From a virus (lineage: Duplodnaviria; Heunggongvirae; Uroviricota; Caudoviricetes), in IMG/VR virus record IMGVR_UViG_2554235304_000012: DNA of 35,661 nt; one strand, written 5' to 3'. The notes beneath the pieces were generated by a model. It was not told the origin of the DNA. It did not search any database and was given only the letters and a program-made list of their open reading frames with translations. The translations under genes and the position numbers were made by a program. Below are positions 742-31,893 of the stretch, piece after piece. Numbering within the stretch: the first letter of the stretch is position 1; each line of letters begins with the position of its first letter.

Positions 742-1407
742 TCAATTTTTAAGAGCACTGATACAGAAAAATTGCATGACATTTTTCTTTATTGATTTAA
801 ATAAGCTAAACATTGTGACAGGTTCAAAGCTAGTTAACTCGATGAATTCCTCTCTCATTTGAGAAAGTAACAGCTGACGTACTGATTCAATTTCTGCTGT
901 TTGTTTTCTCAAATATCTTGAGAAAACAAGTAGTTCATCAGCTGTTTTGTTTTGGCCATTTATAAACGTAACAGGTTGCCCTGGCTTAGATATGAGAAAA
1001 AATTGGTTAATTTTATCAAGTAATGGTGGAATTATTTTTTTCCATTCAGCCCATTCTTTTTCACGATGAAACTCCAGACTGTGCTGACATGTTCTTAGTT
1101 GCTGTATATCAATCGCCCAGACCTCACTCTCATCGAGGCAATCTTTCCATTTGCTAATTACATTAATGTCAAATTTTTTGTTCGGTAGATAATTATCTTT
1201 GGCGTGCGCTTCCAGTATAGAGGCAAGAGTACCTGTATATTGCATCAAATTGGTAGATGCTCGGTTTACTAGCTCAGATATTCGATCTAGTTGAGTTGTT
1301 CTAATCTCAAGTGCTTTCTTTTTACGTTCATTTCGTAAAGCAAAATATGCAGCAAGGCAGACTGCAGCAACTGTGGCTGCTGGTGCGATAAAAATTTGCA
1401 TATTCAT
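742..1407 (-). CDS. Hypothetical membrane-anchored protein (about 221 aa, N-terminal TM helix), AT-rich moron
   Basis: Track ORF 742..1431. Start moved to ATG at 1407 (MNMQIFIAPAATVAAVCLAAYFAL...), which has an AGGA Shine-Dalgarno upstream. AT-rich by eye relative to flanking phage genes. AT-rich upstream region 1432-1601 and a hairpin plus T-run downstream (about 690-725). Confidence 0.6.
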   Translation of the reverse strand: MNMQIFIAPAATVAAVCLAAYFALRNERKKKALEIRTTQLDRISELVNRASTNLMQYTGTLASILEAHAKDNYLPNKKFDINVISKWKDCLDESEVWAIDIQQLRTCQHSLEFHREKEWAEWKKIIPPLLDKINQFFLISKPGQPVTFINGQNKTADELLVFSRYLRKQTAEIESVRQLLLSQMREEFIELTSFEPVTMFSLFKSIKKNVMQFFCISALKN

Positions 1408-1601
1408 AACATGGATCCTTTGACATGGCATTTATGGGGGCTATTTCAGCAGTAATCATTTGTGTGTAAATTTGTTTGCTACAAATTAACATATTCTAAT
1501 GTAAGGCTCTTCTGATTTTGACACCGGGTAGGCTGTCAGATTGGTTATGATTCTTGCTGTAAGCGCGTTAGCAAATGTCAGGGCTAATGCATCTAAGTTG
1601 T

Positions 1602-2702
1602 TTACTCTGTTTCTGCTATCCATTCCGGGATTTTGGCTTCAAGCTCAAGCTGCGTGGTAAAGCCACTGTTATCAATGGTGTGCTCGGCTTTTGCAATGAT
1701 CCAGTCCTGATTATCAATCTCGCTTTTAAATCCTGTTACCGTGCCATGCATTTCGGGGTAGAGTTCTGCTCGTCCACGTGCCAGCGTGATGGAAAATGAT
1801 GCGGCTCCGCGTTGTAGCTGCTGCCATTTTGCCGCCGCTGCGCGTCTTGCTGCCTGCTCGTTCTGATAAGTTTTGCGTAACACAAACACGTTGCCTTCCG
1901 CACCTTCCATATAGTCACCTTCACGGCTGCTGCTTTTCTCTTTTTTCGGTTTGCGGCGTTTCACGCTGACTTTTTTCTTTTTCCCGTAATTAAGATCAAG
2001 CCAGTAGGCGCGTACACCCGTATACGCCTCGCGGTCAGCAATGCGGAACTGATGGCGATCGCCGCTGCTGCGTGTGATGGCGAACGATGGCAACGGCTGG
2101 CCCAGTGCGTTCACGCGACCGCCTGGCATGATGAATAACAGATTACCGCTTTTTACCGTGGTGATTGCGCCCAGCATTTCCGCCATGCGCGTAAGGAAGG
2201 ACATGTCGCTTTCTTCGGTCTGGTCGGCGTGGTCGATTTCGATATCCATCAGTATTTCGCTGATTTGCGGTTTCAGACCGTACCGATGAGCGATGGCAGA
2301 TACCACGCGCTCAACGGTCACATCATGCCAGGACACCTCACGTTTAACGTTAAATTCATCCCGAAAATCTGCGCTTCTGGCTGAAACAGTCAGCCTGTCC
2401 GGCGGTCCTTCGTGAGCGATTTCATCAACAATGTAAGTGCCTTTTTCTGTCAGCGGTTCTCCTTTCCAGCCAATGAGAACCGTCAGGCGCGCGCCCCGTG
2501 GCGGTAGCTGCAACTGACCATCCGCATCATCCAGCGTGATGGTGAGCTGGTCCGCCTCAAATCCCCGGTTGTCGGTCAGTGACAGGCTCATCAGGCGCTC
2601 TGCCACGCCTGACAGCGTTTTACCCTCCGCGAGAATATCAAAATCCGGCATTTTCACGGGGTCTGTGCCCTGACTGAGCAATTGCATGGTGGTATCGGTC
2701 AT
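1602..2702 (-). CDS. D: Tail protein D (late control gene D family)
   Basis: Track ORF 1602..2834. Product matches the P2 gpD family over its length. Start is ambiguous (ATG at 2702, 2687 or upstream); 2702 chosen. Confidence 0.8.
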   Translation of the reverse strand: MTDTTMQLLSQGTDPVKMPDFDILAEGKTLSGVAERLMSLSLTDNRGFEADQLTITLDDADGQLQLPPRGARLTVLIGWKGEPLTEKGTYIVDEIAHEGPPDRLTVSARSADFRDEFNVKREVSWHDVTVERVVSAIAHRYGLKPQISEILMDIEIDHADQTEESDMSFLTRMAEMLGAITTVKSGNLLFIMPGGRVNALGQPLPSFAITRSSGDRHQFRIADREAYTGVRAYWLDLNYGKKKKVSVKRRKPKKEKSSSREGDYMEGAEGNVFVLRKTYQNEQAARRAAAAKWQQLQRGAASFSITLARGRAELYPEMHGTVTGFKSEIDNQDWIIAKAEHTIDNSGFTTQLELEAKIPEWIAETE

Positions 2703-2859
2703 CTGTTCCCTCCCTGTGCGGCATGGTCGCATGTGCGTGCGGAGGGGGTTACTGCTTTTTGTTGTCGCCGGGTCGGGAGAACGGCGCAGGGGTGAGATTA
2801 CGCGCGTGGTGGGTGATGATTGTTGCCGAATCATTTTACGGATACAAGGGGCTGAAGCT
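2703..2859. promoter_or_regulatory. Divergent intergenic region between D (-) and FI (+); presumed late promoter(s)
   Basis: 157-bp non-coding gap between two divergently oriented late genes. No Ogr-box consensus found by eye. Confidence 0.3.
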
Positions 2860-5150: not shown

Positions 5151-7944
5151 TATCCGGGTCGCTTTCAGCGCCGTTGACAGGCTGACCCGGCCTGCCGAAA
5201 ACGCCCGCCGCCTGATGGGGCAGTTTGGTGACTCCATCCAGCGAACGCAGGGGGCGATCAAAAATCTCGAGCGTCAGGCGCGTTCATTTGAGCGCGCCCG
5301 TGACGCTGTCAGTAAAGCGGATGCTGGCATATTGAAAGCACGACGCCAGCTTAACGCTCTTAATCAGTTACAACGCACGGGTACAGTGCTCAGCGAAAAA
5401 CAACAAAAGCTGATGCAGCAGTTAAGCACCCGGCTTGAACGCCTGAATGAATCGCGCACACGGGAAATTCAGAAAATGCGGGAACTTGGCGGAGAGCTGA
5501 AACGCCACGGCATTTCCCTGACAGGCAGCGATAACACCATCCAGCAGGCCATCAGACGCACCGAACAGTACAACAACCAGCTTGAACGCGAACGGCAGGC
5601 GCTTGCGCGTGTAACGCGGGCGCGTGAGCGGTATTCGCGCGCGCAGGAAACCGCGGGAAAACTGAAAACAGGTGGTGCGCTGGCAATTGGTGCGGCAGCG
5701 GCGGGCGGCTATGCTGCCGGGCGTTTTTTGCAGCCCGCGATCGGGTTCGGCAAAGAGATGTCCCGCGTTCAGGCGCTGACGCGAATCGACCAGAACAGCC
5801 CGCAGTTTAAGGCGCTGCGTGAGCAGGCGTTAAAACTTGGCTCTGAAACGCAGTTCACCGCAGGCGATGCCGCCAGTGGGCAGGCATTTCTTGCAATGGC
5901 TGGCTTCACACCGCAGGCCATTCAGGCTGCGCTTCCCGGAGTGCTGAGCATGGCAACGGCTGGCGGTATGGATCTCGGCGAGACGGCAGATATTGGCTCA
6001 AATATCCTGACGCAGTTCGGCCTTTCTGCTGACCAGATGGACCGGGTCGGTGACACACTCACCGCAGCGTTTACCCGTACCAACACTGACCTTCGCGCAC
6101 TGGGCGAAACCATGAAATATGCAGGTCCGGTGGCGGGTAAGCTGGGAATATCGCTGGAGCAGGCCGCAGCGATGGCTGGCGTGCTGGCGAATATGGGCAT
6201 CAGAGGGAGTGATGCCGGGACGGCAATGCGTGCCAGCCTGGCTCGTCTGGCATCACCGCCAAAGGCGGCGGCAGAAGCTCTGAAAGAGCTGGGCGTGTCC
6301 GTCTCGGATGCCGGGGGCAAAATGCGCCCGATGGAGGATGTGCTGGCCGACCTTTATAAAGCCACCCGCAAATACGGGGAAGTTGACCGGGTATCGTTCT
6401 TTAAGGACATTGCCGGAGAAGAGGCTTTCACATCGTTTATGGCGCTCGTTGATGCAGCGGGTGACGGTTCCTTACCCAAACTGAGAAAAGAACTTGAAGG
6501 CGCGCGCGGTGAGGCTGAACGCACAGCAAAGGTTATGGCCAACAACCTTGACGGCGATCTGAAATCACTCGGCAGTGCATGGGAAGGGTTGCGCATCCGC
6601 ATTGCAGATCTGATTGACGGTCCGCTGCGTTCTGTCACGCAGTGGCTCACGCGGGTGGTATCAAGGGTGACGGCGCTGGCGCAGGCCCATCCGGCACTGA
6701 CGCGCCAGCTACTGATAGCAGGCGGTGCGTTGCTGGCAATGACTGCAACGGTTGGCTCGTTGTCGCTGGCTATTGGTGTGCTTGCTGGTCCGCTGGCAAA
6801 ACTGCGTCTTGGTTTTTCTCTCCTGACCGGATCAATGAATGCTGTCAGGGTCCTGCCAGCACTATGGGGAATGGTGACGGGTTCCGTTTCTTTACTGGGA
6901 GGCGCTATCGGGGCGCTGTTCAGTCCGGTTGGTCTTATCGTGGCTGCACTTGCCGGAGCTGCCGTTCTTATCTGGAAATACTGGGATCCCATCAGGGCAT
7001 TTTTTGCCGGGGTGTTCAGCGGGATTATGGAAAGGCTGGCCCCGTTGCGCGAAACCTTTGAACGGTTTGGTCCTGTTTTTGACGCAATCGGAAGCGGGAT
7101 CAGCCAGGTGTTTAACTGGTTTAAATCGCTGCTGTCACCGATGGAGTCCAGCAAGGAAACGCTGGATAAATGTACCAGTGCTGGCGAGATATTCGGTAAC
7201 GTTCTTGGCGGTGCGTTACAACTTGTTCTGACGCCTGCAAAAATGCTACTGGATACGCTGGCGTGGATACTTGAAAAACTTGGCGTCCTTCCGGATGAAG
7301 CGGAAAGGGCGCGCAAGAAAATCGAAGACGCACAGCGTGCGGCCATTCTTCAGGACAAGGTTGCCTTGCTTCAGGGGGACCTGGCGAAAATCAATCCGCC
7401 GAAGCCTGTGGAAAATGGCAATGGCACCGGAGGTGATAAACCCAAAGACAACAAACCGCTCACAGACAGCAATACCGGTACGCTACGCAGACTCAGCAAA
7501 ATTGCTGATAACACAGGTAAGCTGGTTGATGAGACGAAAAAACGCATTGGCCCCGGCGATATTGTCTTTAAGAATCTGCCCCGCGCACTTGCTGTTCGTG
7601 GGGAGTGGCAGGAGCGGAAGATTGCGCAGGTCAGTAAGCCTGCTTCCGCAATCAACATCACACCCGTGGTCCCGACTCCTCTGCCTCCGGCGCTGGTCCC
7701 TGTTGTTGCGGCCAGCTCCCGCCCGGTGGCGGAGGCCATACGATCGCCAGTGGCATCAGTTCCTGCAACTTCCCGTAACCGGGAGCCTGTTGTCTCCGGA
7801 TTTGGCGGTGAAATTCATGTTCATCTGCATAACGTTGTTACGCAGAATCCCCGCAAACTGGCGAAACTGGTCGGTGAAATGGTCAGGGCAGAATTGGAAC
7901 GACGCGACCGTGCCGGACGTGGCAGTTTTTACGATAAAGATTGA
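5137..7944 (+). CDS. T: Tail tape-measure protein T
   Basis: About 935-aa protein with a coiled-coil-rich N-terminus and Gly/Ala-rich hydrophobic central segments typical of tape-measure proteins. Sits between E/E' and U. Start taken at ATG 5137; the track begins at GTG 5101. Confidence 0.85.
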   Translation: MKTLDIRVAFSAVDRLTRPAENARRLMGQFGDSIQRTQGAIKNLERQARSFERARDAVSKADAGILKARRQLNALNQLQRTGTVLSEKQQKLMQQLSTRLERLNESRTREIQKMRELGGELKRHGISLTGSDNTIQQAIRRTEQYNNQLERERQALARVTRARERYSRAQETAGKLKTGGALAIGAAAAGGYAAGRFLQPAIGFGKEMSRVQALTRIDQNSPQFKALREQALKLGSETQFTAGDAASGQAFLAMAGFTPQAIQAALPGVLSMATAGGMDLGETADIGSNILTQFGLSADQMDRVGDTLTAAFTRTNTDLRALGETMKYAGPVAGKLGISLEQAAAMAGVLANMGIRGSDAGTAMRASLARLASPPKAAAEALKELGVSVSDAGGKMRPMEDVLADLYKATRKYGEVDRVSFFKDIAGEEAFTSFMALVDAAGDGSLPKLRKELEGARGEAERTAKVMANNLDGDLKSLGSAWEGLRIRIADLIDGPLRSVTQWLTRVVSRVTALAQAHPALTRQLLIAGGALLAMTATVGSLSLAIGVLAGPLAKLRLGFSLLTGSMNAVRVLPALWGMVTGSVSLLGGAIGALFSPVGLIVAALAGAAVLIWKYWDPIRAFFAGVFSGIMERLAPLRETFERFGPVFDAIGSGISQVFNWFKSLLSPMESSKETLDKCTSAGEIFGNVLGGALQLVLTPAKMLLDTLAWILEKLGVLPDEAERARKKIEDAQRAAILQDKVALLQGDLAKINPPKPVENGNGTGGDKPKDNKPLTDSNTGTLRRLSKIADNTGKLVDETKKRIGPGDIVFKNLPRALAVRGEWQERKIAQVSKPASAINITPVVPTPLPPALVPVVAASSRPVAEAIRSPVASVPATSRNREPVVSGFGGEIHVHLHNVVTQNPRKLAKLVGEMVRAELERRDRAGRGSFYDKD

Positions 7945-20754: not shown

Positions 20755-22506
20755 ATGATTCAGGACGCTTTTGTGCGCCAGCGTGCGCGGCAACTTTACT
20801 GGCAGGGTTATCCGCCCGCAGAAATATCACGTCTGATGGGAATAAACCCGAACACGATTTATGCGTGGAAAAAACGTGACCAGTGGGATGAAACGCCACC
20901 CGTGCAGCGTGTCACGCAGTCCATCGATGCGCGTCTCATCCAGCTTACTGAAAAACAGAATAAAACAGGCGGTGACTTTAAGGAAATAGACCTGCTGACC
21001 CGGCAGCTTAAAAAGCTGCATGATGGCCAGCCGGATGCGACGGCCGCAGGAAAGAAAGGCCGGGCGAAAAAACTCAAAAATCATTTCACGCCGGAACAGA
21101 TTGCCGCACTGCGGGAAAAAATCATCAGCAGGCTGGAGTGGCATCAGCGGGGCTGGTTTGACTCCCTGACCCTTTGCAGGGAAGCCGGGATACGTAACAG
21201 GATGATCCTGAAATCCCGACAGATTGGGGCGACCTGGTATTTTGCACAGGAAGCACTGCTGATGGCGCTGCGTGACGATGTGGCGCAACCTTACCAGCGT
21301 AACCAGATTTTTTTGTCTGCGTCGCGTCGTCAGGCGTTCCAGTTTAAAAGCATTATTCAGAAGGCCGCGGCTGAAGTTGATGTGGAGCTGAAAGGGGGCG
21401 ATAAAATCATCCTCTCCAACGGCGCAGAGCTGCATTTTCTCGGCACTTCTGCTGCGTCGGCACAGTCCTATACGGGCAATTTTTATTTTGATGAATTTTT
21501 CTGGGTCAGTCGCTTTGCTGAACTGCGCAAGGTGGCTGGCGCTATGGCAACCCTCAGCGGACTGCGGCGCACCTACTTCTCCACGCCATCCACCGAAACG
21601 CACGAGGCATACGCCTACTGGAACGGCGACCGCTGGAATGAGAAAAAGGCCTCGCATAAACGCCAGCGTTTTTCTGTGGACTGGAAAACGCTGCATAACG
21701 GGCTTATCTGCCCTGACCGGACGTGGCGGCAAATTGTCACGCTGGAAGATGTGGTTAATCACGGCTGGAAACACACTGATATCGACGAAATTCGTGATGA
21801 AAACACCGAAGACGAGTTCCTCAATCTCTATATGTGTGAGTTTGTCCGCGAAGGGGAATCGGCATTTAACCTGAATATCCTGATTGGCTGCGGTGTTGAC
21901 GGATACGACGACTGGAAAGACTGGAAACCTTTTGCTCCCCGCCCGATGGGGAATCGTCCGGTATGGATTGGGTATGACGCAAACGGCAGTAGTGGCAACG
22001 GCGACAGCGGCGCTGTGTCCGTGGTGGTTCCTCCGGCTGTTCCTGGTGGCCGTTTTCGAACGGTGGAGACGCGACGCGTTCAAGGGCTGGAGTTTGAAGA
22101 ACAGGCCAGAGTCATTGAAGAGTTCACGTATCGCTACAACGTGGAACACATCGGCATTGATGTGACGGGCGGGAACGGGGAGGCTGTTTATCAGATAGTG
22201 AAACGGTTTTTCCCTGCTGCTATTCCGTACACCTTCACGCTGTCATCAAAACGGTCGCTGGTACTGAAAATGCTGCACATAATGCGTGCCGGGCGGTGGG
22301 AATACGATCGCGCCGAACGCGAGCTGGTCGCGGCCTTTAACGCCGTGCGTAAGGTGAAAACACCGGGCGGCTTTATCACTTACGAAACGGACCGCGCGAG
22401 GGGGATCAGCCACGGCGACCTTGCGTGGGCAACCATGCTTGCTGTCATTAACGAACCGATTGGCGGCGAAGGAGAAAACGAGCGTTTCACGGTTATGGAG
22501 TTCTGA
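20755..22506 (+). CDS. P: Terminase large (ATPase) subunit P
   Basis: 583 aa (P2 P is about 589 aa), divergent from O and followed by Q with overlapping stop/start. Confidence 0.8.
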   Translation: MIQDAFVRQRARQLYWQGYPPAEISRLMGINPNTIYAWKKRDQWDETPPVQRVTQSIDARLIQLTEKQNKTGGDFKEIDLLTRQLKKLHDGQPDATAAGKKGRAKKLKNHFTPEQIAALREKIISRLEWHQRGWFDSLTLCREAGIRNRMILKSRQIGATWYFAQEALLMALRDDVAQPYQRNQIFLSASRRQAFQFKSIIQKAAAEVDVELKGGDKIILSNGAELHFLGTSAASAQSYTGNFYFDEFFWVSRFAELRKVAGAMATLSGLRRTYFSTPSTETHEAYAYWNGDRWNEKKASHKRQRFSVDWKTLHNGLICPDRTWRQIVTLEDVVNHGWKHTDIDEIRDENTEDEFLNLYMCEFVREGESAFNLNILIGCGVDGYDDWKDWKPFAPRPMGNRPVWIGYDANGSSGNGDSGAVSVVVPPAVPGGRFRTVETRRVQGLEFEEQARVIEEFTYRYNVEHIGIDVTGGNGEAVYQIVKRFFPAAIPYTFTLSSKRSLVLKMLHIMRAGRWEYDRAERELVAAFNAVRKVKTPGGFITYETDRARGISHGDLAWATMLAVINEPIGGEGENERFTVMEF

Positions 22507-23552
22507 TGAGCAGAAAAAACAAAAAAGTGCGCATGAGTTCACGCATTGATCTCGCTGATGCGCTCAGGAAAGAATCATCGCTCAGTGCATTCACATTTGA
22601 TGGTCCTTATCGCCTGACCGGGCATGACCTGCTGGACAATATGTACTGTGCTGATAACGGGCGGTGGTATGAAACCCCGGTGGACTGGTACGGTCTGGCA
22701 AGAGCAGCCCGGCAAACGTCCTGGCATCAGTCTGCGCTTTACTTTAAGCGCAATGTATTACTCGGTTGCTACATCCCGCACCCGCTGCTTTCCCGGCAGG
22801 ATTTCTCGGCGCTGGCGCTGGACTGGTTTGTGTTCGGTAATGCATTCCTTGAGCTTCGAAGCAATATGCTCGGCGAACCGCTTAAATTACGGCACGCCCT
22901 GGCGAAATACATGCGACGCGGAAGCGATCTTGAATCATGGTGGTATGTGCAGGATGGTAAGGACGCGTTTCAGTTTCGCCCTGGCAAAGTATGCCACCTG
23001 ATGAATCCGGATATTAACCAGGAAATCTACGGCATGCCGGAATATCTTGGCGCATTACTCTCGGCCAGCCTTTCTCATTCGGCGGACATGTTCAGAAAAC
23101 TGTACTACGACAACGGATCCCACGCCGGGTGCATCATCTACATCGGTGCAGCGCAGGTAAACCGCGAAAGCATGGACTCCCTGAAAGAAACGTTACAGGG
23201 TGCGCGTGGTGGTGGTGCATTTAAAAACGTGCTCATTCATGCGCCCAACGGGGGCAAAGAGGGGGTGCAAATTTTGCCGTTCCAGCAGATCACCGCAAAG
23301 GATGAGTTCATGAATGTTAAGGCGGCATCCCGTGATGATGTACTGGCTGCGCACCGCGTTCCGCCGCAACTGATGGGGGCGATGCCGGGCGAAAAAAGTG
23401 CGTTTGGTGATGTGGAGAAGGCCGCGCGGGTTTATGCAATTAACGAGCTGATGCCCGTTATGGAGGCTATGAAGCACATCAATGACTGGCTTGGCGAAGA
23501 GGTGATCCGCTTTAACCCTTACGCACTGTTAGACACCCAGCCCACATCCTGA
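22506..23552 (+). CDS. Q: Portal protein Q
   Basis: 348 aa (P2 Q is about 344 aa). Last structural gene before the presumed cos region. Confidence 0.8.
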   Translation: MSRKNKKVRMSSRIDLADALRKESSLSAFTFDGPYRLTGHDLLDNMYCADNGRWYETPVDWYGLARAARQTSWHQSALYFKRNVLLGCYIPHPLLSRQDFSALALDWFVFGNAFLELRSNMLGEPLKLRHALAKYMRRGSDLESWWYVQDGKDAFQFRPGKVCHLMNPDINQEIYGMPEYLGALLSASLSHSADMFRKLYYDNGSHAGCIIYIGAAQVNRESMDSLKETLQGARGGGAFKNVLIHAPNGGKEGVQILPFQQITAKDEFMNVKAASRDDVLAAHRVPPQLMGAMPGEKSAFGDVEKAARVYAINELMPVMEAMKHINDWLGEEVIRFNPYALLDTQPTS

Positions 23553-24027
23553 CGCGCTTCGCTTGTCTGCTGCTTCGTCGGGGCATAAAAAATTTATGCC
23601 CCGACTCTCCAGCTCCTGTATCAATCAGATAATTTCACGACGTCTTCCAGCTTATCGCCATCATCGACGGTCAGGCTCTTACGCAATCCCACCGCGTTGA
23701 CTGCATGTTCTCGCCGCCTCAGTGCGATTTTGACGGCCTTATCTGTCACCCCATCAAATCAAAAGCCCTCACGTCTTTTTCACGCTCAGCGTGAGAAATA
23801 CAGCCATTCTGTTGTGTCGCTGCGACATCGTTCAGGGGATGCTATTTACCCCCTGAAACGCGGGCTGTTCCCCCGTCACCTGCGCGCAGAAAAAGCGCGT
23901 TTTTTTGTGCACGCACGGATCCCTGACGGATCCAGCCGCCACGCGGGCCAGAAGGGCAAAAATTCGTTCAAAAAAATTGTGCAAATTTGTGCACTATCGT
24001 GCATGTAAATTCATAAAAAAATTACAG
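23553..24027. other. Non-coding region expected to contain cos and packaging signals
   Basis: About 475 bp without convincing ORFs between Q and the accessory cassette. Contains a hairpin CGGGGCATAAA...TTTATGCCCCG (23577-23602), a palindrome TCACGCTCAGCGTGA (23779-23793) and a GC-rich stretch CCGCCACGCGGGCC (about 23930-23945) loosely resembling P2/186 cohesive-end sequence. Confidence 0.3.
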
Positions 24028-24049
24028 AAAAAAGGCCGCTTTCGCGGCC
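24028..24049 (-). terminator. Rho-independent terminator after the S8 peptidase gene
   Basis: GGCCGC-TTTC-GCGGCC hairpin followed on the minus strand by a T6 run. Confidence 0.5.
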
Positions 24050-24056
24050 ATAAAAA

Positions 24057-26261
24057 TTACGTGTCGAGAGAAATTTGTGTGCGCAGTTGAATAGGATTCA
24101 GAATTGTATATCGCTGGCGAATAACATTATATAAATCAAAGTCTTTTACCCTTACGCTTATTACCATCGCATATTGCATATCAGGGGCTGAAACTCCCTT
24201 AACATGGCGCGAAGAATCTCGGGCATGATACCGTATATCAAAAACTGGATCGCTTAATAATGTATCAGCACTGAACTTTTTGCTTCTGTGCAAACAAGTT
24301 TCCCACTTATGACCTTCACTCCTACACTCCCTTTCAGTCTTATACTGGCTTTTTTGACCAAAGAAATCATCTGTATCGGTATCGTCAAGGCCGAATCTTG
24401 GGCGGAAAGTTACCTGCATACCGGCCCTTGTATAGTTTACTGAATGTTCAGGATCTACTGGGGTTTGAATGCATAAAGTAGCGGTAAGCTCAAATGCTTC
24501 GTCAAAGGGAACATCAGGGAATGGGATCGGTGCCCTTAAATATTTATTTTTTGCTAATGAACCATAGTAAATTACTGTAGCAGTATCATTTGGACAATCG
24601 ATTAAAACGTTAGGATCCTCACTAAACCGTCCCCAACCGATATGTTCACGCGAATATTTTCTTGATGTTTCAGCATGATGAACAAGCAACGCTTTCAATG
24701 CAATGGTGTTCAATGGAGTTCCTGATAGAGCCGCAACTCCAGCGGCCGTTCTCAATGCTAATGGAGAGGCATAACTGGTTCCTTGAACTCCAACTATAGA
24801 ACCAAGCAGAGGGTTGTAAGTGTAAAAAGGCTCGTCGTCGCTTCCACCAAAAATAACACCATCAGGTTTAACGAATCCGGGGCTTCTGCCTGGCCCAATA
24901 CAGCTATATGGTGCCCGCCCCCATTTTTCACCGCTACGATCAGCAGCACCAATCGCTAGCGCGTTTACCATATCGGAAGGAGGTTGTATTCTCGCTGCAT
25001 CACCGTCCTCATTGCCATCATTCCCAACAGCAACAGTAAGTAATATCCCATGCTTAGCACAGATTTGGTCTAAAACAGCAGTCCATACATGAACCTCATC
25101 ATCACCAATTGGAAGATGAGGACCAATACTTAGATTAGCGAACTTATAGTCACCACTATCAAGAACGGACTGTATTTTCTTAAGGACATCAAATAAATCC
25201 CAATTGCCATTGTCACCTGATGTCGGTGAAAGAACTCTATAATGATCTACATTCATAAACGGTCTTTTAAAAGAAGGTGCATTTTCCTCGACACGTCCGA
25301 ATAAGAAAGTGGATGTCACTTCATTACCGTGCTGCAATAATAATCCGCTTGTTTCTTTGGTGTCTGGATACACGTATTCCGTAACCCAATTACTCAAGTC
25401 AGCTGTCCCCAAGCCACCATCAAAAATGGCAATACGTTCGGATTCAAGAACAGCTTTAGAATTAGGGAGCTCCGGTGTAACTATATTAGATAACTTTCTG
25501 ACAATGTTCGGCTGAGTACACCTGAGAGACGGCATCGGCCGCACAACGCGGATTAATGAAAAATCGAGTGTTTTTTTCATATCTTCAGGTCGCGCGTGTG
25601 CAACGATGAAAGTCAGCCCACCAACTTGGATTCTACTTTTGTAATCAACAGAGACATCATATTGTGCCGCATAGCTAATATAGGCTTTAACGATATCATC
25701 GTCTTCAACCCCAGCATGAAGAACCACTTCAAATTTTATCAAATCACTTTTCGCATGCTCAAAATTGCGTGCTCTCTCTTTTCCTTCAAAAAAGCTAACA
25801 CTTTCAATTTCGATCAAATCCTTTTGTACGCCCTTCGGAGCTGTAGGGGAATTTAAAATTTCCTTAAATCTTATAACGGCATCATCATCACCGCTAACAA
25901 ACAGTTGCGCCGTTACTAAGTCCTTATTCTGATCGCACTGACGTGCCGCTTTCCGTGGGCGAATGATTACCTGACGGCTGCCGACATCCCGTAAACCTGT
26001 CGCTCTAAGCAATCCTTCCGGAAAGTAGCTTTTACCCAAAAACGCTGGGTGTAAAGTTAAATTGAATACACTCTCCCCCCTTGGCTTAGCCGCATCATCC
26101 AAACTGCGAAAGCGTGAGAGTAAAGTATCAATCTCTGGGTTTAAATGCTCCCTTACTTCTTCAAGAGTATAGGGATAGCGCTTACCATCCCTTCCTTTAG
26201 GCAAAGGTTCCTTTTTTGTCAGAACATGACCGTTACCTAAAAGTAAGTTCCTTTCCATCAT
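24057..26261 (-). CDS. Subtilisin-like serine peptidase (S8 family), 734 aa; IetS-like
   Basis: Asp box IAIFDGGLG, oxyanion-hole region VAVGNDGNEDG and Ser box GTSYASPLALRTAAG in S8 order. Start overlaps the upstream ATPase stop by 4 nt. AT-rich by eye. Confidence 0.85.
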   Translation of the reverse strand: MMERNLLLGNGHVLTKKEPLPKGRDGKRYPYTLEEVREHLNPEIDTLLSRFRSLDDAAKPRGESVFNLTLHPAFLGKSYFPEGLLRATGLRDVGSRQVIIRPRKAARQCDQNKDLVTAQLFVSGDDDAVIRFKEILNSPTAPKGVQKDLIEIESVSFFEGKERARNFEHAKSDLIKFEVVLHAGVEDDDIVKAYISYAAQYDVSVDYKSRIQVGGLTFIVAHARPEDMKKTLDFSLIRVVRPMPSLRCTQPNIVRKLSNIVTPELPNSKAVLESERIAIFDGGLGTADLSNWVTEYVYPDTKETSGLLLQHGNEVTSTFLFGRVEENAPSFKRPFMNVDHYRVLSPTSGDNGNWDLFDVLKKIQSVLDSGDYKFANLSIGPHLPIGDDEVHVWTAVLDQICAKHGILLTVAVGNDGNEDGDAARIQPPSDMVNALAIGAADRSGEKWGRAPYSCIGPGRSPGFVKPDGVIFGGSDDEPFYTYNPLLGSIVGVQGTSYASPLALRTAAGVAALSGTPLNTIALKALLVHHAETSRKYSREHIGWGRFSEDPNVLIDCPNDTATVIYYGSLAKNKYLRAPIPFPDVPFDEAFELTATLCIQTPVDPEHSVNYTRAGMQVTFRPRFGLDDTDTDDFFGQKSQYKTERECRSEGHKWETCLHRSKKFSADTLLSDPVFDIRYHARDSSRHVKGVSAPDMQYAMVISVRVKDFDLYNVIRQRYTILNPIQLRTQISLDT

Positions 26262-27340
26262 TTAATCCCCCACTTTTGTAATTTATTCGCGATTGTTGGA
26301 TGTGAAACACCAACTAATTCAGCTATCTTCCTATTTGAAAAACCGTCAAAATGATATTTAATTATATTGAGATCATTATCGCTAAACTCATCCAATGAAA
26401 CCCTCTCCGTAATTACGGCTTCTATTAATGAGCTTTCAAATGGAATATTTCTAAGTACCTCATTCTTTTTGGAGAAATTCAAAATACGGTTAATGATGGC
26501 AAAGGACATGCCATCTAATAATGGTGCAAGTTTTTTAGATAGTTCAGGTTCAATATTATGATTGACTAAATATCTATCTATCAGTTCTACTGATGGCATA
26601 TTAAATTTAAGGATGTGCTCAAATCGACGCCAAACAGCCGGATCTAAGATATCAGGGTGATTAGTCGCAGCAACAAGAAGCGAGGTCGCTGGCCACTCAT
26701 CTATGGTCTGTAGGAGTACAGTAACTAAACGTTTTAATTCTCCAACGTCCCTGTCATCATCACGTCTTTTTGCAACAGCATCAAATTCATCAAGCAAAAG
26801 GACACATGGTTTCTCTTTGGCATAATCCATAACGGATTTAATATTATTACCTGTTTTTCCCAAAAGAGAACTCATTACAGATGAGAGATCCAATGTTAAA
26901 AGAGGTAAATTTAACTTTGCAGCAAGCCAATGTGCGGACATTGTTTTGCCTACGCCTGGCGGGCCAGAAAGTAAAACCGTCTTCACAGGTTCAAGACCAG
27001 CTTTGAACAAAGAAACCGCATTCTCTCTTTCGTTAACAATTGACTCCAGCTTCTTTGAGATATCCGTATTCCATACAGGTTCTTCAACAATTGCGTTGAC
27101 AGATGTTTCCTGCAAAAGGTTTCGTCTGGAGTCTCCATCCACAGGCATAGGAGCCTTACTAGATGCCCCACGTAATACTGTTCCCTCAGCAACTAACGAA
27201 GCCAGCTTAGAAGCTAAAGCCTCATCATTTTTACGGATGTTGTTAATCATCTTTCTGCATAGGAGTGTAAATGCATTTGCGTTGCCTTTGATGCCTTGCT
27301 CGATGAGTTTGAAAAGTTCATCCTCCCTCACGTTTACCAT
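26258..27340 (-). CDS. AAA+ ATPase with C-terminal helix-turn-helix, 360 aa; IetA-like
   Basis: Walker A GPPGVGKT, Walker B VLLLDEFD, sensor/SRH region LLVAATNHPDILDPAVWRRF, and a C-terminal HTH NRKIAELVGVSHPTIANKLQKWGI. Confidence 0.85.
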   Translation of the reverse strand: MVNVREDELFKLIEQGIKGNANAFTLLCRKMINNIRKNDEALASKLASLVAEGTVLRGASSKAPMPVDGDSRRNLLQETSVNAIVEEPVWNTDISKKLESIVNERENAVSLFKAGLEPVKTVLLSGPPGVGKTMSAHWLAAKLNLPLLTLDLSSVMSSLLGKTGNNIKSVMDYAKEKPCVLLLDEFDAVAKRRDDDRDVGELKRLVTVLLQTIDEWPATSLLVAATNHPDILDPAVWRRFEHILKFNMPSVELIDRYLVNHNIEPELSKKLAPLLDGMSFAIINRILNFSKKNEVLRNIPFESSLIEAVITERVSLDEFSDNDLNIIKYHFDGFSNRKIAELVGVSHPTIANKLQKWGIK

Positions 27341-27718
27341 AAAACCCCCAATAAAACATCAGCTTGTGTAAGCTGGTAACTACATTAATGAAAATCATTG
27401 ACTAATGTTACCACTCTTGCTGGCGTAATTCAAAGAGTATCCTTACTTTTTTACTGTATGGATAATCAGCATAAAATCTATCCAGTTGGGTTACTCGAAC
27501 ATACTGTCAATACTTGTTTCCAACGATTGATCAGTTCTACAGTTTTATCTCCTTCACTTGTGTTGGCAGCATGCTTATTCCTGAACCAGCTCGATTACTT
27601 GGCCATTTGAGAAAGATGTGTAGATCTTCTGATGGTTTGTATTGGAACGGGGTGTATAGTGATTTGCACCCCGTTCTTTATGTTATGGGATTGGTGGCAG
27701 GGCGAATACGCCCTGATG

Positions 27719-28030
27719 TTATTCAGGAAATAACGCCCGGATATTTCCGGCCATCTGACTGGTTATCTGTGCGGTTGATACTGGCTGTGACGCGGGGCGT
27801 TCTGTCTTGGTTTGTGTCACTGATAACACCTCATCATCAGCCCATGCAGCCAGTCGGTAAGCCTCTGCCGGATTCATTTTCAGAAGTGCCAGCCCGGCCA
27901 GAAAAGCCACGCGTTGGCCGCTTTTGCGGGCTTCTGGTGTAAGGCTGTCCAGCCAGGCGCATGCTTCTCCTTCGTTCTTGACGGCGGTGGGCTTCAGATA
28001 GAAACTTATCCGTCTGGTTGGAGTCGTCAT
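27719..28030 (-). CDS. parR: ParR-like centromere-binding adaptor (putative)
   Basis: 103 aa from ATG 28030 with AAGGAG Shine-Dalgarno, immediately downstream of parM as in R1 parMR. N-terminal RISFYL.P ... LDSLTPEARKSGQRVAFLAGLAL weakly resembles R1 ParR (RTIAFKL.P...LDSIPQGERSRLNRAALTAGLAL). Confidence 0.6.
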   Translation of the reverse strand: MTTPTRRISFYLKPTAVKNEGEACAWLDSLTPEARKSGQRVAFLAGLALLKMNPAEAYRLAAWADDEVLSVTQTKTERPASQPVSTAQITSQMAGNIRALFPE

Positions 28031-28034
28031 TGGT

Positions 28035-28994
28035 TTACTCCTTGTCCATTGCGTACAGCCCATTAACCAGAGCAAACTGTGGCACCCCGTCCGCGATGAA
28101 AGTCGCATTAACTCCGCAGGCTTCGCGGATAGCGGGTGCCACAATCTCCGCCCCTCCACCGACAACCATCACCCGCCCGTAACCCGAAAAAACCGCCAGC
28201 GCGCGGATCACGCGTTGTTTCAGTGTTTCCTCCTTTTCACGAATAACTGCCATCAGGCTGGCGTAATGCGCGTCATTGTGGATGTGCTGGCGCAGCCAGG
28301 CTTCATCGTGGCGATGTTCGATAATGGTATTGGCGATGTGGTGACTGGTGCGCATACCGTTGGTGGCCATCACCGACAGCACGGCATCGGCCATCAGAGA
28401 AACGCCTACGTGTGGATCGCAAAACACCTGGCTGATACCTGCCAGTTGCCCCTGAACCTTTGCCACATCCAGCGTGGTTCCGCCCAAATCCACAATCAGC
28501 AGGGATTCAAACGGACTCATGTCAGCCAGTGCTTTAAAGCCAGCCGGAATGGATTCAGGCATAACCCGCACGTTACGGATAGTGAATGCCTCGCCGTTTT
28601 GGTACTCCACCGGGCGCATAACGTTCGCTTTTTTGCGGTTGATGTTGGCCATGTCCGGCTGTGCGTTTGTGTCGAAATACTCGCTCAGTGGCAGGGTGAC
28701 AACCACATCCACCTCCTGTGGCGTGATGCCTGATTTGACCAGCGCATGATGAATGGCAATGACATTCACATCGCTGTACTGGTATTGCGTGTCGGTCGTC
28801 TGGACAAAGCGATCGCTGACCGGATCAAAACCATAGCGCACGCCATCAAGCATGTAGTTCGCGGGCTGCGTGCCACCGAACGGCGCAGACCATTCCGACT
28901 TGAAGCTGTTCGGGCTGATGGCGTTGCGGTGTTCGCCGTTCTCAGTCCATGCCAGCTTGATGTTGGTGGAGCCGTCGTCGATACAAATTTTCAT
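28035..28994 (-). CDS. parM: ParM/StbA actin-like segregation ATPase
   Basis: MKICIDDGSTNIKLAW......ISPNSFK.EW...FG...NY.L.G..Y.FDP.S......T....YSDVNV.A.HHAL..SG....EVD.V.T.PL.E..D.N.QP...NI.RKKAN..R......G..FTI..V.VMPESIPAG...L......SLLI.DLGGTTLD aligns closely with R1 ParM as remembered. Confidence 0.9.
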   Translation of the reverse strand: MKICIDDGSTNIKLAWTENGEHRNAISPNSFKSEWSAPFGGTQPANYMLDGVRYGFDPVSDRFVQTTDTQYQYSDVNVIAIHHALVKSGITPQEVDVVVTLPLSEYFDTNAQPDMANINRKKANVMRPVEYQNGEAFTIRNVRVMPESIPAGFKALADMSPFESLLIVDLGGTTLDVAKVQGQLAGISQVFCDPHVGVSLMADAVLSVMATNGMRTSHHIANTIIEHRHDEAWLRQHIHNDAHYASLMAVIREKEETLKQRVIRALAVFSGYGRVMVVGGGAEIVAPAIREACGVNATFIADGVPQFALVNGLYAMDKE

Positions 28995-29031
28995 GTCGCT
29001 TTTCCTTATGTTGATTAATTAATCGGTTACA

Positions 29032-29134
29032 GGATTTTTAAATCCCGTTTTCGCCTGTTTTGTGCGCGCTTCATATATCGCGGCGCGTTTTTTGCTCATT
29101 TACGGGATTTGTGAATCCCGTTTTTGTCTGTTTT
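29032..29134. repeat. parC-like repeats upstream of parM (two ~30-bp direct repeats, each with an internal inverted repeat)
   Basis: GGATTTTTAAATCCCGTTTTCGCCTGTTTT (29032-29061) and GGGATTTGTGAATCCCGTTTTTGTCTGTTTT (29104-29134). The second copy lies inside the last codons of gene A. Confidence 0.45.
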
Positions 29135-31893
29135 TTGTTTCCACTGGTCAGGCCACCCCGCAGCAGGTCTGCTTTGCGGCGGGCGCGTTCAGTTGTTTCA
29201 CTGATTCTCTGTTCGTGCTCTGCGTCGCGGATGGCGCGCAGCATGTCAGAAAGTACGGTAACGGGTGTTTTCATGGTGTTCTGGTCTTGCTGAAGTGTGG
29301 ATGCCAGGCGTGCGGCGGCTTCAGGGTCTGATGCCCCTAGTTGTTCCAGATAGCTGGCGACCGGGTTATGGCGGATCTCCGTGCTGCTTACGCCGTGGTT
29401 ACGGCTCAGGCGTTGCCAGAGCTGCGTGATTCGGCTGTCCGGGCGGGTATCCGGTTTACGTACAATTTCATATCCCTGCGGTGCAATGATGCTGCCGTCA
29501 ACGTACAGGCTGCCGCCCCGTAACAGGTGCTGCATCTGCTGTTCACCGATATGCAGGCCGAGAGATTCAGCAGACTCCCGCCATTCTTTAGCGAGTAATT
29601 CGTGGTTATCAGGCAAAGGCCGCTGCTGTTTGCGGCTCTGTGTCCAGCTCTGCATTTCATCACTGCTGTTTTTTGCCTGTTTGTCACGAAGCGAACGCAT
29701 CAGCGCCCGGCGTTCGTGCCGTTTCAGTGAGCGCACCCATTCGTTCACTTCAACGCCGTCAGGGAGCTGCGGCCACGGTGCTGGCCGTTCTTCCGGCTGT
29801 TCTGTCCCGTTGTTGTCCGTTTCCTGTACACGGGGACAGTTATTGCCACGAGTCCAAGGGGCGGCAGGGCCGCCCTGAAGGTCAAAACCATTTTCGTGGG
29901 CGCTGCCTTCCTGTTCCGGTTTACGTCTTACCAGCTTCCAGTTATCCGGGTGCGTGCACACACGGGAGGATTCCCCGATGAGTGGTGACCAGATCCCGTA
30001 AATCTGTACACTCTGTTCGCCGTAATCGTTCAGCTCATCGGCGAGGTCGTAGGCGGTGCGAATCAGGTAGTCTTTGCGTGGAACAAGTACACCGCCCTGT
30101 TTCTCTATGTAGGTGGCAAAACATCCGGCATCAGCGGCAGCGAGTACCGCATCCATTGCGTCATCCTTCAGCCGTTGCGGGCCTTCCGGGTTGCGTGCCA
30201 TCTGGCTGGCAAGGCGGCGGAGTTCACGCCACACCTGACGGGAGGGGATGCCAAAGAACTGGAACTGGCGGACCCGGTGAAGGCGTGCCCAACCGATGGC
30301 GCGCTCCACGCTCTCGGCCATTGATTTTCCGGTTTCGTGGTCAACGCGTGGTTTGCCCGTTTTCGGGTCGATGCCATCCACGGCGCGGCTGTCCAGGTTT
30401 TTTCCGATGTAGGTGGCGATGTAGCTGGTTGGCGTGCCTTTGGTGCCGTCGACGTACTCCACCTTAAAGCGCGGAGTAATATCATTGCCCAGCTCGTGGC
30501 GGTCTTCCTGAATGGCAATATCGCGGGTGATGGTCACGATGCTGTCGATTTCTTCCGGATGAGCAAAGACCATCATATGCCAGTGCACGGTGCCGTCATG
30601 GTGAGGCTCCACCGTGCGGATGCCATACCAGCGCAGGCCGTCGCGGTTCAGTTTTTTGCGGACCGCCGCAAAAAACGTGTTAACCAGGTAATCGCTGGAG
30701 TCGCGCATGGTGGCCCCGTTCCATTTGGGGTTCGGATGACCGTTCTCCGTTGTTGCGTGGTATTTTGACGGGCAGGTGACAGTCAGAAACACCGCTCTGT
30801 CGCCACGGGCTTCGGCCAGAAGTTCCAGTCCCTTCATGGTGGCCATCATTTCTGCCTTACGGTGAACCGGGTTACTTACTCCCGCGTAATACACTGTCTC
30901 GAGATCAATCGTGAACCCGTCTTCGTTTTCCAGCATGAAACTTTTCAGGAAATCGCGTGTTTTCTCGCGCTGTGCGCGAAACTCGCTTAACGCGTCCTGG
31001 CTCAGATAGGGCGATGTTTTTCTGGAAACCAGACAGGCGGCGCGGAGTTGTTCTTCTCTCCACTCGCAACGTAACAGCCACAGTTTGCGTTTCCACCATT
31101 CCGCACAGGTCAGGCGAAGGATTGCGCCCGGCAGCAGCTCCGTGTCCGGTTCGTTCCTCCGGTCTTTGTCTGTTGTCAGTGCGTCATAATGTGGAGGCAT
31201 GGCGTGCAGGTGTAACGCCATGCGGGCCAGCATCTGATACGCCTTCAGGGTTACATCCATGGTCAGCTCGCCATCGGTCGCGCCAAAGCCATCGCAGAGT
31301 TTTTCGAAGGTGCTGCTGAACATCGCCGCCGTCATGGTTGCCAGCGTCTTTATCTGGTGTTTGTTGAGCTGCGGCAGGTAAAGCAAATCGTCCAGGCGTT
31401 CGCGTCCGGCAAGGGAGCGATAACCCGGTGTCAGCCAGCGGTGATCGGTGCGCTCCAGACGTTCGAATATTTTGCGCAGGGTCCCACGCGCATAGCGTTC
31501 TGCCTGCCTGGCGTTTTTTCCTTTCTGACGATCGGCTTCCTGTTTTTTGCGCAGGAAGGAGAGGTGGCGAATAAGCGGATCGCGCAGATAGGACGGCAGC
31601 AGGCGCAGCGAGGCCATGGCTTCATCCACCGCGCCGCGTGCCTGTTTTCTGGCGTCTCCTGCCAGTGTGATGGTTTTGTCCTGTTTTTCCTGTGCGTCCA
31701 GGCTTTTATTAATCAGGTTGCCCAGCGGCGTGGCGGAGAACGCCGCATCAGCCATTTCCTGGCGGTGCTCGTTCTCTGCCCGGTAGGCATCCAGCCAGGA
31801 GGAAAGCGCGGATTCAGGAGCGGGGATCCCCGTTCCTTCACGCCCCACTGCGTGGCGCGGTTGTTGCCAGTCCCTGATGTACTCTGCCGTCAT
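29071..31893 (-). CDS. A: Replication initiation protein A (rolling-circle HUH endonuclease family), 940 aa with C-terminal extension
   Basis: Position and orientation as P2 A. A histidine-rich HUH-like motif (PHHDGTVHWHMMVFAHP) consistent with a rolling-circle initiator. Uninterrupted ORF, about 180 aa longer than P2 A (761 aa). Confidence 0.85.
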   Translation of the reverse strand: MTAEYIRDWQQPRHAVGREGTGIPAPESALSSWLDAYRAENEHRQEMADAAFSATPLGNLINKSLDAQEKQDKTITLAGDARKQARGAVDEAMASLRLLPSYLRDPLIRHLSFLRKKQEADRQKGKNARQAERYARGTLRKIFERLERTDHRWLTPGYRSLAGRERLDDLLYLPQLNKHQIKTLATMTAAMFSSTFEKLCDGFGATDGELTMDVTLKAYQMLARMALHLHAMPPHYDALTTDKDRRNEPDTELLPGAILRLTCAEWWKRKLWLLRCEWREEQLRAACLVSRKTSPYLSQDALSEFRAQREKTRDFLKSFMLENEDGFTIDLETVYYAGVSNPVHRKAEMMATMKGLELLAEARGDRAVFLTVTCPSKYHATTENGHPNPKWNGATMRDSSDYLVNTFFAAVRKKLNRDGLRWYGIRTVEPHHDGTVHWHMMVFAHPEEIDSIVTITRDIAIQEDRHELGNDITPRFKVEYVDGTKGTPTSYIATYIGKNLDSRAVDGIDPKTGKPRVDHETGKSMAESVERAIGWARLHRVRQFQFFGIPSRQVWRELRRLASQMARNPEGPQRLKDDAMDAVLAAADAGCFATYIEKQGGVLVPRKDYLIRTAYDLADELNDYGEQSVQIYGIWSPLIGESSRVCTHPDNWKLVRRKPEQEGSAHENGFDLQGGPAAPWTRGNNCPRVQETDNNGTEQPEERPAPWPQLPDGVEVNEWVRSLKRHERRALMRSLRDKQAKNSSDEMQSWTQSRKQQRPLPDNHELLAKEWRESAESLGLHIGEQQMQHLLRGGSLYVDGSIIAPQGYEIVRKPDTRPDSRITQLWQRLSRNHGVSSTEIRHNPVASYLEQLGASDPEAAARLASTLQQDQNTMKTPVTVLSDMLRAIRDAEHEQRISETTERARRKADLLRGGLTSGNKKQTKTGFTNPVNEQKTRRDI

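Follow-up and report, generated by a model that had tools for sequence, protein, structure and literature searches.

Gene content of the gene A–portal interval

The window, meaning the whole stretch of DNA that was analysed (35,661 nucleotides; IMG/VR record IMGVR_UViG_2554235304_000012), holds a P88-like prophage (Xuanwuvirus, P2 family) of E. coli O127:H6 E2348/69. The prophage is integrated between btuC and ihfA. RefSeq annotates an integrase, and a Hok/Gef gene at the opposite end of the prophage. The cargo interval occupies the location of the P2-like hotspot, with replication gene A on one side and portal gene Q on the other. Gene A (29,071–31,893) forms the right flank and encodes a replication endonuclease of 940 amino acids (Pfam Phage_GPA, E 8.8e-131; RefSeq). 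On the other side, the portal gene ends at 23,552. It is followed by a cos-proximal backbone segment that runs from the portal stop to the cargo (23,553–24,003) and ends in a triple TGTGCA repeat. Judged from position, cos probably lies beside the cargo interval. The P2 19-nt cohesive end GGCGAGGCGGGGAAAGCAC was not found at up to three mismatches, and the exact cos site was therefore not located.

The interval contains two gene pairs, ietA–ietS next to cos and parM–parR next to gene A, separated by a spacer of 378 bp (27,341–27,718). These genes and gene A are all on the minus strand, as are the parts of the cassette, the spacer segments and the par repeats described below. The original prediction of a 5-kb block between gene A and cos, with parM–parR and an ATPase–peptidase pair in tandem on one strand, was borne out in its gene calls and coordinates. 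The hairpins predicted for the spacer were confirmed as two strong stem-loops.

The ATPase–peptidase pair

The AAA+ ATPase gene ietA (26,258–27,340; 360 aa) lies upstream of the S8 (subtilase) serine peptidase gene ietS (24,057–26,261; 734 aa). The genes are codirectional and overlap by 4 nt, and a terminator-like hairpin follows ietS, as in a two-gene operon. Resembling an intrinsic terminator, this hairpin (GGCCGCGAAAGCGGCC, with a T-run after it) is located at 24,034–24,049, 8 nt past the ietS stop. Its sub-threshold match to the Histone3 stem-loop in an Rfam scan of 23,400–29,300 (E ≤ 1) was rejected as spurious.

IetA residues 7–356 match positions 5–370 of the 374 positions in PADLOC profile PDLC02196 (E 3.6e-89). 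The protein has a Pfam AAA domain (E 9.6e-31) and, at motif level, Walker A (GPPGVGKT126) and Walker B (VLLLDE180) sequences. A C-terminal HTH_50 match scores 26.7 bits, slightly below the 27-bit cut-off. IetS residues 22–707 match PADLOC profile PDLC02197 (E 6.6e-41), supported by Pfam Peptidase_S8 (E 4e-17). Candidate catalytic-triad motifs, again at motif level, are DGG281 or DSG368, HGN311 and GTSYASP494. The presumed promoter region upstream of ietA (27,341–27,477; GC about 0.35) belongs to the cassette and is co-linear with the ietA upstream region of Enterobacter phage phiT5282H. On the coding strand, a search for promoters detected no consensus sigma-70 site ahead of either ietA or parM, and the total of promoter-like sites equalled the shuffle expectation; the ietA promoter is therefore a presumptive one.

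On these matches the pair belongs to IetAS, a known toxin–antitoxin and abortive-infection defence system. Characterised homologues combine a protease toxin with an ATPase antitoxin and act in abortive-infection defence (PMC13069673; 10.1101/2022.08.27.505566; PMC5006074). The first description of IetAS was as a plasmid-stability toxin–antitoxin system of pTiC58; the homologous sgiAT has a stabilising role in SGI1, an excisable island (PMC13069673, PMC5006074). Common to pTiC58 ietA/ietS, SGI1 sgiAT, the defence system of Gao 2020 and the window is an AAA+ ATPase gene followed by an overlapping S8 peptidase gene. Both window proteins are full-length PADLOC matches with catalytic motifs present. 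Differences are the phage-borne location, compared with a plasmid (pTiC58) or an island (SGI1), and the IetA C-terminal HTH just short of the Pfam cut-off. No experiment on the IetAS allele of the window was found in the literature. By analogy, IetS would be a subtilase toxin restrained by the AAA+ ATPase IetA. We infer a defence activity in which infection by a competing phage would be expected to trigger abortive infection. As a toxin–antitoxin pair, IetAS could also penalise loss of the element.

The partition module

The gene parM (28,035–28,994; 319 aa) encodes an actin-like segregation ATPase (Pfam StbA_N, E 2.7e-82; ParM C-terminal domain, E 6.3e-69). Residues 2–316 match ParM of plasmid R1 (1mwk, E 8.6e-93), and the best plasmid ParM is about 53% identical. 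Four nucleotides past the parM stop begins parR (27,719–28,030; 103 aa), with a start that agrees with RefSeq WP_000211288. Its product is the predicted adaptor of a type II partition system (StbB family; PF10784 Plasmid_stab_B, E 1.7e-23) and had no sequence match in the PDB. Both genes are under purifying selection, with dN/dS of 0.03–0.21 for parM (11 related prophages) and 0.22–0.48 for parR. Two ParR alleles occur; the N-terminus and the C-terminal NIRALFPE are conserved.

Upstream of parM are two 38-nt direct repeats (29,027–29,064 and 29,100–29,137), 84% identical and 73 bp apart, a candidate parC/operator. Each holds the palindrome ACGGGATT-N4-AATCCYGT (two matches against 0 expected). 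The distal repeat falls within the final codons of gene A, and the repeats are conserved in 11 of 11 related loci. From sequence, the two repeats might form the centromere. A scan of genome contigs with ParM recovered only three near-identical loci, of which one belongs to a 'Vagococcus' assembly that is probably contaminated; the scan yielded no distant relatives in which parC covariation could be sought.

The module resembles ParMRC of plasmid R1 in the end-to-end alignment of ParM with 1mwk, the StbB family of ParR, the order parM, parR and the upstream repeats. It differs in its location on an integrating P2-like prophage and in having only two palindrome-containing repeats, one within gene A, instead of an iteron array. 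The centromeres of R1, pB171 and pSK41 are multi-iteron, unlike the two repeats of the window. A literature search on ParMR function in P88/Xuanwuvirus, the E2348/69 P2-like phage or other P2-like phages found nothing, and any role of ParMR here is presumptive.

The complete par module (27,719–29,178) comprises the repeats, parM, parR and an alternative gene A 3′ end. Its outer limit is visible in prophage L012, which has the same gpA lineage (96%) and no parMR. Homology of L012 to the window begins only at 29,179; its gpA stops 24 residues earlier and has a different tail.

Composition of the two modules

The two modules had been proposed to be compositionally distinct, and the computed GC and GC3 do differ. 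The values are 0.390 and 0.330 for ietA, 0.427 and 0.337 for ietS, 0.555 and 0.662 for parM, and 0.542 and 0.519 for parR. The 3.6-kb IetAS cassette has a GC of 0.410; segments of equal size in the rest of the prophage have 0.541 ± 0.029, which places the cassette about 4.5 SD below them. GC and GC3 of parMR agree with the prophage backbone. Further AT-rich cargo is present in the window at 742–1431; this ORF had no PADLOC or Pfam match.

Junctions of the IetAS cassette

The IetAS cassette (24,004–27,601) consists of the terminator, ietS, ietA, the upstream region and an orphan gpA tail. The region 23,859–27,601 is 95.8% identical to the Novemvirus phiT5282H and to E. coli AMR2684. In both, the cassette adjoins gene A directly without parMR, and the pairing of IetAS with parMR is thus not obligate. 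The phiT5282H cassette also lies between gene A and cos, next to a portal gene merely 72% identical to that of the window.

On the left, all cargo variants compared have their edge at the 10-bp-phased TGTGCA repeat triple (23,977–24,003). Alignments with P88, Shae_phiSM and six E. coli prophages that carry different cargo break off at 24,002–24,010. The motif TTGTGCAAATTTGTGCACTATCGTGCA occurs also in phiT5282H and AMR2684.

On the right, 27,478–27,601 is what remains of the last ~43 codons and the stop of a gene A of Novemvirus type, now orphaned and frameshifted. Its alignment to the phiT5282H/AMR2684 gpA 3′ end (ending in SRAGAGIGMLPTQVKEIKDKTVELINRWKRVLAVCSSKLTG and the stop) shows a 7-nt deletion at about 27,550. 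In phiT5282H the cassette-associated tail is in frame and is the real gpA C-terminus. Compared with its closest relatives SEN4/SEN5, homology of the phiT5282H gpA ends about 50 codons before the stop, which indicates that the gpA tail travels with the cassette. The orphan tail is best read as a recombination scar of the cassette's earlier A-adjacent context. No such tail was found beside the three-gene cassette of prophage L009.

The alignments mark the spacer as composite: backbone (27,602–27,718), orphan gpA tail and ietA upstream region. The backbone segment 3′ of parR is common to Shae_phiSM and L009 up to exactly 27,601 and bears both stem-loops. The first (27,644–27,677) has a perfect 10-bp stem (27,645–27,654/27,667–27,676). 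The second (27,698–27,715) has a GC-rich 7-bp stem and is kept, with a varying loop, in P88 and five related prophages (L006, L007, L009, L010 and L015). A 126-nt stretch with both hairpins folds at −36.4 kcal/mol compared with −17.3 ± 3.1 for shuffled sequences (z = −6.2). The hairpins have no U-run on the coding strand and are therefore not called classical intrinsic terminators. The Rfam scan found no known RNA family in the spacer.

The cassette was probably acquired in a single event, through recombination with a P2-like phage that carried it directly downstream of gene A in a phiT5282H-like arrangement. For the left crossover, the conserved motif of TGTGCA repeats next to cos is the probable site. 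The right crossover, downstream of parR, would have been illegitimate with about 1 nt of microhomology. With it would have come the final ~43 gpA codons of the donor, later decayed by the 7-nt deletion. Transfer into the parMR context, as the probable direction, is argued from the gpA tail, the in-frame form being ancestral to the orphan frameshifted one, because the true donor is unsampled and phiT5282H is just 96% identical.

Distribution and alternative cargo

Among 5,426 complete E. coli genomes, parMR DNA (at least 90% identical) is present in 1,307, always beside gene A, and the IetAS cassette in 32. The cassette is at least 99.4% identical and in the parMR context in 31 of these genomes; the remaining one is Novemvirus-like (96.6%). 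P88/Xuanwuvirus phages have both flanks and parMR in common with the window and lack the cassette.

Nine alternative contents were recovered from related prophages with flanks 94–97% identical. The slot from the parR stop to cos can hold ead/Ea22, Phd/Doc, a Rosmer-like HTH-M78 + PIN pair, DUF3800, DUF4760, IS1 or nothing. Several of the alternative cargo proteins had no PADLOC or Pfam match. The left edge falls at 24,002–24,010 in most variants and at 24,077 in L007; right edges fall at 27,601, 27,669, 27,674, 27,698, 27,719 or 27,885. The cargo on the cos side varies between otherwise near-identical prophages while parMR stays. From these alignments, the actively exchanged slot appears to be only the stretch from the parR stop to cos, about 24,004 to 27,601–27,719.

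The block is thus not uniformly conserved, and its junctions proved usable for finding other cargo, as had been suggested. Layered cargo exchange at a single hotspot holds. The two modules do not rank equally as cargo, parMR being near-fixed in the P88-like lineage.

Discussion

The gene A–cos interval is very probably the known P2-like cargo hotspot with two nested cassettes of differing age. The older inner layer would be the type II (ParMRC-like) partition module of candidate parC, parM and parR, joined to gene A at its 3′ end and characteristic of the entire P88-like lineage. The younger outer layer would be the 3.6-kb AT-rich IetA/IetS cassette. Anatomy, junctions, distribution and HMM family membership were observed directly at this locus.

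The locus is already catalogued, and the observation, correctly read, was already known. Both the hotspot and its partition system were described by Rousset et al. 2022 (PMC9122126), whose Table S5A contains precisely these four genes in this arrangement, under identical protein accessions. The paper notes a putative partition system in about a quarter of P2-like phages, and the same hotspot holds old/tin in P2 itself. The window agrees with their gpA–gpQ hotspot in position, conserved flanks and high content turnover, and does not differ from it in kind. Three elements were not found in the accessible parts of that paper: the two-layer description, the junctions at nucleotide level and the orphan gpA tail.

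It is possible, if unlikely, that ParMR partition and IetAS post-segregational killing form a joint maintenance region, with the phage persisting as a low-copy episome or being stabilised after excision. The plasmid-stability origin of IetAS and the stabilisation of SGI1 by sgiAT (PMC13069673, PMC5006074) fit this reading, as do Phd/Doc and the PIN-toxin pair in the same slot, Hok/Gef at the other prophage end and purifying selection on parM and parR; toxin–antitoxin systems are, on the other hand, generic defence cargo. One complete assembly (strain Z1323PEC0009) contains a 34.5-kb circular 'plasmid', pZ1323PEC0009-2, which is an entire P88-like phage with parMR; the record could instead be excised replicating phage DNA captured by the assembly. 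Rousset et al. speculate that the partition system permits plasmid maintenance (PMC9122126). Against this, 1,453 of the 1,455 parMR places in the complete E. coli genomes are chromosomal, and the prophage of the window is itself integrated and encodes an integrase. ParMR is also found with many unrelated cargos or an empty slot, and IetAS is found without parMR. Less probable still is the broader proposal that P88-like P2 phages are facultative phage-plasmids. Together with an exchangeable cassette for addiction or defence (IetAS, Phd/Doc or PIN toxin), the origin, candidate parC, parM and parR would then stabilise an episomal or post-excision state. If so, IetAS would be both an addiction module and an anti-phage system.

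We consider it rather improbable that parMR is exchangeable cargo ranking with IetAS, so that one slot received two independent recent insertions and parMR is not lineage backbone. L012 argues for this reading, since in the same gpA lineage a three-gene cassette takes the place directly beside gene A and parMR is absent. The par module also has a boundary of its own within gene A, where it provides gpA with an alternative tail, two ParR alleles exist, and the hotspot tables of Rousset et al. count StbA and Plasmid_stab_B as hotspot genes (PMC9122126). Its constant place beside gene A in 1,307 genomes, its backbone-like GC and GC3, and its persistence while the cos-side cargo changes favour the older inner layer instead. 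It is very unlikely that the AT-richness of the ATPase–peptidase pair results from selection acting on the two genes, such as H-NS silencing of a toxic system, and not from recent foreign origin. In favour of selection, the cassette is equally AT-rich in phiT5282H (which follows from 96% identity) and AT-rich cargo occurs also at 742–1431. However the composition arose, horizontal acquisition is shown by the abrupt ends of homology, the orphan gpA tail and an occurrence limited to 32 genomes, and the two explanations are not mutually exclusive.

Read as nested cassettes, the locus is a worked example, at nucleotide resolution, of cargo movement between P2-like genera, and adds little beyond that. 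Because right breakpoints fall in or just past the gene A 3′ end, cassettes carry alternative gpA tails, which are left behind as scars. Why an integrating phage keeps ParMRC under purifying selection is a question already posed by Rousset et al. 2022 (PMC9122126). The TGTGCA repeat and the parR stop provide anchors to mine cargo in the ~1,300 parMR-bearing E. coli genomes.

Prophage context and gene order

The whole window is a complete prophage, inserted between btuC and ihfA; one of its ends carries an integrase and the opposite end a Hok/Gef gene. The nearest phages are P88, Shae_phiSM and further Xuanwuvirus members (Peduoviridae, P2-like). A 6.2-kb stretch around the block matches E. coli O127:H6 E2348/69 (NC_011601.1, 1873234-1879434) with 100% identity. 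Terminase P (20755-22506) and portal Q (22506-23552) are encoded on the plus strand and followed by a non-coding cos-proximal region. The block (24057-29070) encodes on the minus strand an S8 peptidase (734 aa, 24057-26261), an AAA ATPase (360 aa, 26258-27340), a StbB/ParR protein (103 aa, 27719-28030) and ParM (319 aa, 28035-28994). Gene A (29071-31893) lies beside it on the same strand.

The Hok/Gef family toxin gene E2348C_RS09835 (1-141) is located at the extreme end adjoining ihfA and is a further addiction-type gene on the element. Between gpD and ogr, an ORF of 229 aa (742-1431, minus strand) is strongly AT-rich (GC 0.359, GC3 0.283). It had no match in Pfam or PADLOC and resembles a second cargo spot. 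RefSeq splits gpD (1602-2834, minus strand) into a 263-aa protein and a pseudogene fragment. The window ORF is unbroken with 410 aa, and the start in the RefSeq annotation is probably too short.

Two modules in the block

The original prediction of two compositionally distinct modules was borne out. Peptidase (GC 0.427, GC3 0.337) and ATPase (GC 0.390, GC3 0.330) differ from ParM (GC 0.555, GC3 0.662) and ParR (GC 0.542, GC3 0.519). The 3.6-kb cassette of the peptidase-ATPase pair (24004-27601) has a GC of 0.410, compared to a mean of 0.541 +/- 0.029 for same-size windows elsewhere in the prophage. The expected 378-bp spacer and both its hairpins were found between the modules, and the hairpin-bearing segment is far more stable than shuffled sequences (folding z = -6.2).

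The ATPase and the peptidase matched the PADLOC models IetA (E 3.6e-89) and IetS (E 6.6e-41) over nearly the full length, with Walker A, Walker B and subtilase triad motifs all present. The first description of IetAS came from pTiC58, where the protease is the toxin and the ATPase the antitoxin of a toxin-antitoxin pair (PMC13069673, PMC5006074). The homologue sgiAT stabilises Salmonella genomic island 1 (PMC5006074). IetAS is also a recognised anti-phage system, and a Bacillus homologue behaves like abortive infection (PMC13069673, 10.1101/2022.08.27.505566). For the block genes, functions are predicted from family membership.

ParM aligned end-to-end with the R1 ParM (PDB 1mwk, E 8.6e-93); ParR belongs to the family Plasmid_stab_B. 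Upstream of parM, two 38-nt direct repeats are placed 73 bp apart, one of them between gene A and parM (76 bp) and the second within the final codons of gene A. Each contains the palindrome ACGGGATT-N4-AATCCYGT, and together they are a candidate parC/operator. Across eleven relatives, dN/dS was 0.03-0.21 for parM and 0.22-0.48 for parR, thus both genes are maintained by selection. The par module is a cassette in its own right. In L012, a prophage locus of the same gpA lineage without parMR, homology to the window does not begin before 29179, and gpA stops 24 residues sooner, in a tail of different sequence. The module 27719-29178 therefore supplies the last gene A codons and one of the repeats.

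A second ParR allele was observed in related loci (L011, 3179-3493; L013, an O157-type prophage of strain 28RC1, 5741-6055). Residues ~19-95 differ, the N-terminal MTTPTRRISFYLKPAAVK and the C-terminal LFPE are kept, and homology to the window parR is back only at 27885. A contig of an assembly labelled Vagococcus sp. WN89Y (NZ_JBQPOM010000071.1) encodes a ParM with 98% identity to that of this enterobacterial prophage and is probably a contamination.

Probable origin of the IetAS cassette

The same cassette occurs, with ~96% identity, in Enterobacter phage phiT5282H (Novemvirus) and in one E. coli prophage (AMR2684). There, it is located directly between gene A and cos without parMR, whereas in the window it lies beyond parR. 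The homology to both reaches 27601, exactly where homology to Shae_phiSM and the related prophage L009 starts. Positions 27601-27478 (minus strand) are the counterpart of the final ~43 codons plus stop codon of the phiT5282H gpA, orphaned downstream of parR and broken by a 7-nt deletion. In Salmonella phages SEN4/SEN5, which have the closest relatives of the phiT5282H gpA, homology is lost ~50 codons before the stop; hence, this tail belongs to the cassette and not to the gpA core. The homology break at 27601 and the gpA tail match therefore divide the spacer into three parts: backbone DNA with two stem-loops (27602-27718), the orphan gpA tail (27478-27601) and the ietA upstream region (27341-27477). 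This anatomy suggests that the cassette, once adjacent to gene A, was transferred to the slot beside parR, and that crossover on the left took place in the shared cos-flanking motif. The right join would be illegitimate, with ~1 nt microhomology.

Contents and edges of the slot

Cargo exchange at a single hotspot had been proposed, with related prophages expected to carry alternative cargo between the same flanks. In parMR-bearing prophages whose flanks are 94-97% identical, the interval from parR to cos indeed varied. It was empty in strain WAT or contained an ead/Ea22-like gene, a ClpX-zinc-finger gene with or without Phd/Doc, an HTH-M78 peptidase (PADLOC RmrA, E 3.4e-35) with a PIN protein, a DUF3800 protein (PADLOC candidate PDC-M04A), DUF4760 with a hypothetical gene, a three-gene set without assigned function or IS1. 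The left cargo edge is at 24002-24010 in most variants and at 24077 in one locus (L007). Directly before it, a triple, 10-bp phased TGTGCA repeat (23977-24003; TTGTGCAAAT TTGTGCACTA TCGTGCA) bounds the cargo variants on the left, is conserved in Xuanwuvirus and the distant Novemvirus and is possibly part of the packaging signal. The right edge is variable: 27601, 27669, 27674, 27698, 27719 (parR stop) or 27885 (second parR allele).

The three-gene set (459, 112-114 and 269 aa) is located beside parR in L009 (1553-4081) and beside gene A, without parMR, in L012 (984-3511), with 79% identity between the copies. Its proteins had no match in Pfam or PADLOC; it is a candidate for an unknown defence system. 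A second small variable slot was seen between portal stop and cos (23527-23549). It has no insertion in the window and one of ~630 bp in three related prophages (L008, 469-993; L009, 514-1107; L011, 468-992), encoding a protein of 174-197 aa. The L008 copy had no Pfam or PADLOC match.

Interpretation and distribution

The gpA-gpQ hotspot beside cos in E. coli P2-like phages was defined by Rousset et al. 2022 (PMC9122126), who reported 1,650 gene arrangements and listed one with exactly the proteins of E2348/69. According to a 2026 preprint, the defence loci of P2 and P4 are swapped rapidly, and small intergenic pseudogenes within them are read as recombination remnants (10.64898/2026.02.27.708500); the orphan gpA tail exemplifies this pattern. 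The block is thus real and was correctly interpreted, but the finding was already known. The structural and evolutionary explanation given here for the block is very likely.

A plasmid-style maintenance region, with an episomal role for the ParMRC of an integrating phage, is improbable. In its favour, a 34.5-kb circular 'plasmid' record (NZ_CP148288.1, 1-34461) contains a complete P88-like phage genome including integrase, parMR and Hok/Gef, and several fillers of the parR-adjacent slot are addiction-type TA modules. However, parMR is combined with any cargo or an empty slot, IetAS also exists where parMR is absent, and almost every parMR copy is chromosomal, which argues against functional coupling. 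The circular record was deposited under the plasmid name pZ1323PEC0009-2; it represents either a genuine episome or phage DNA that had been excised and was caught by the assembly.

parMR DNA was present in 1307 of 5426 complete E. coli genomes, with 1453 of 1455 places on chromosomes. The IetAS cassette was detected in only 32 of the 5426, in 31 of them within the parMR context and with at least 99.4% identity. The surrounding 6.2 kb are 97.3-100% identical in these 31 genomes, a pattern that fits a single acquisition of the cassette followed by spread. parMR and IetAS are two layers that differ in age.
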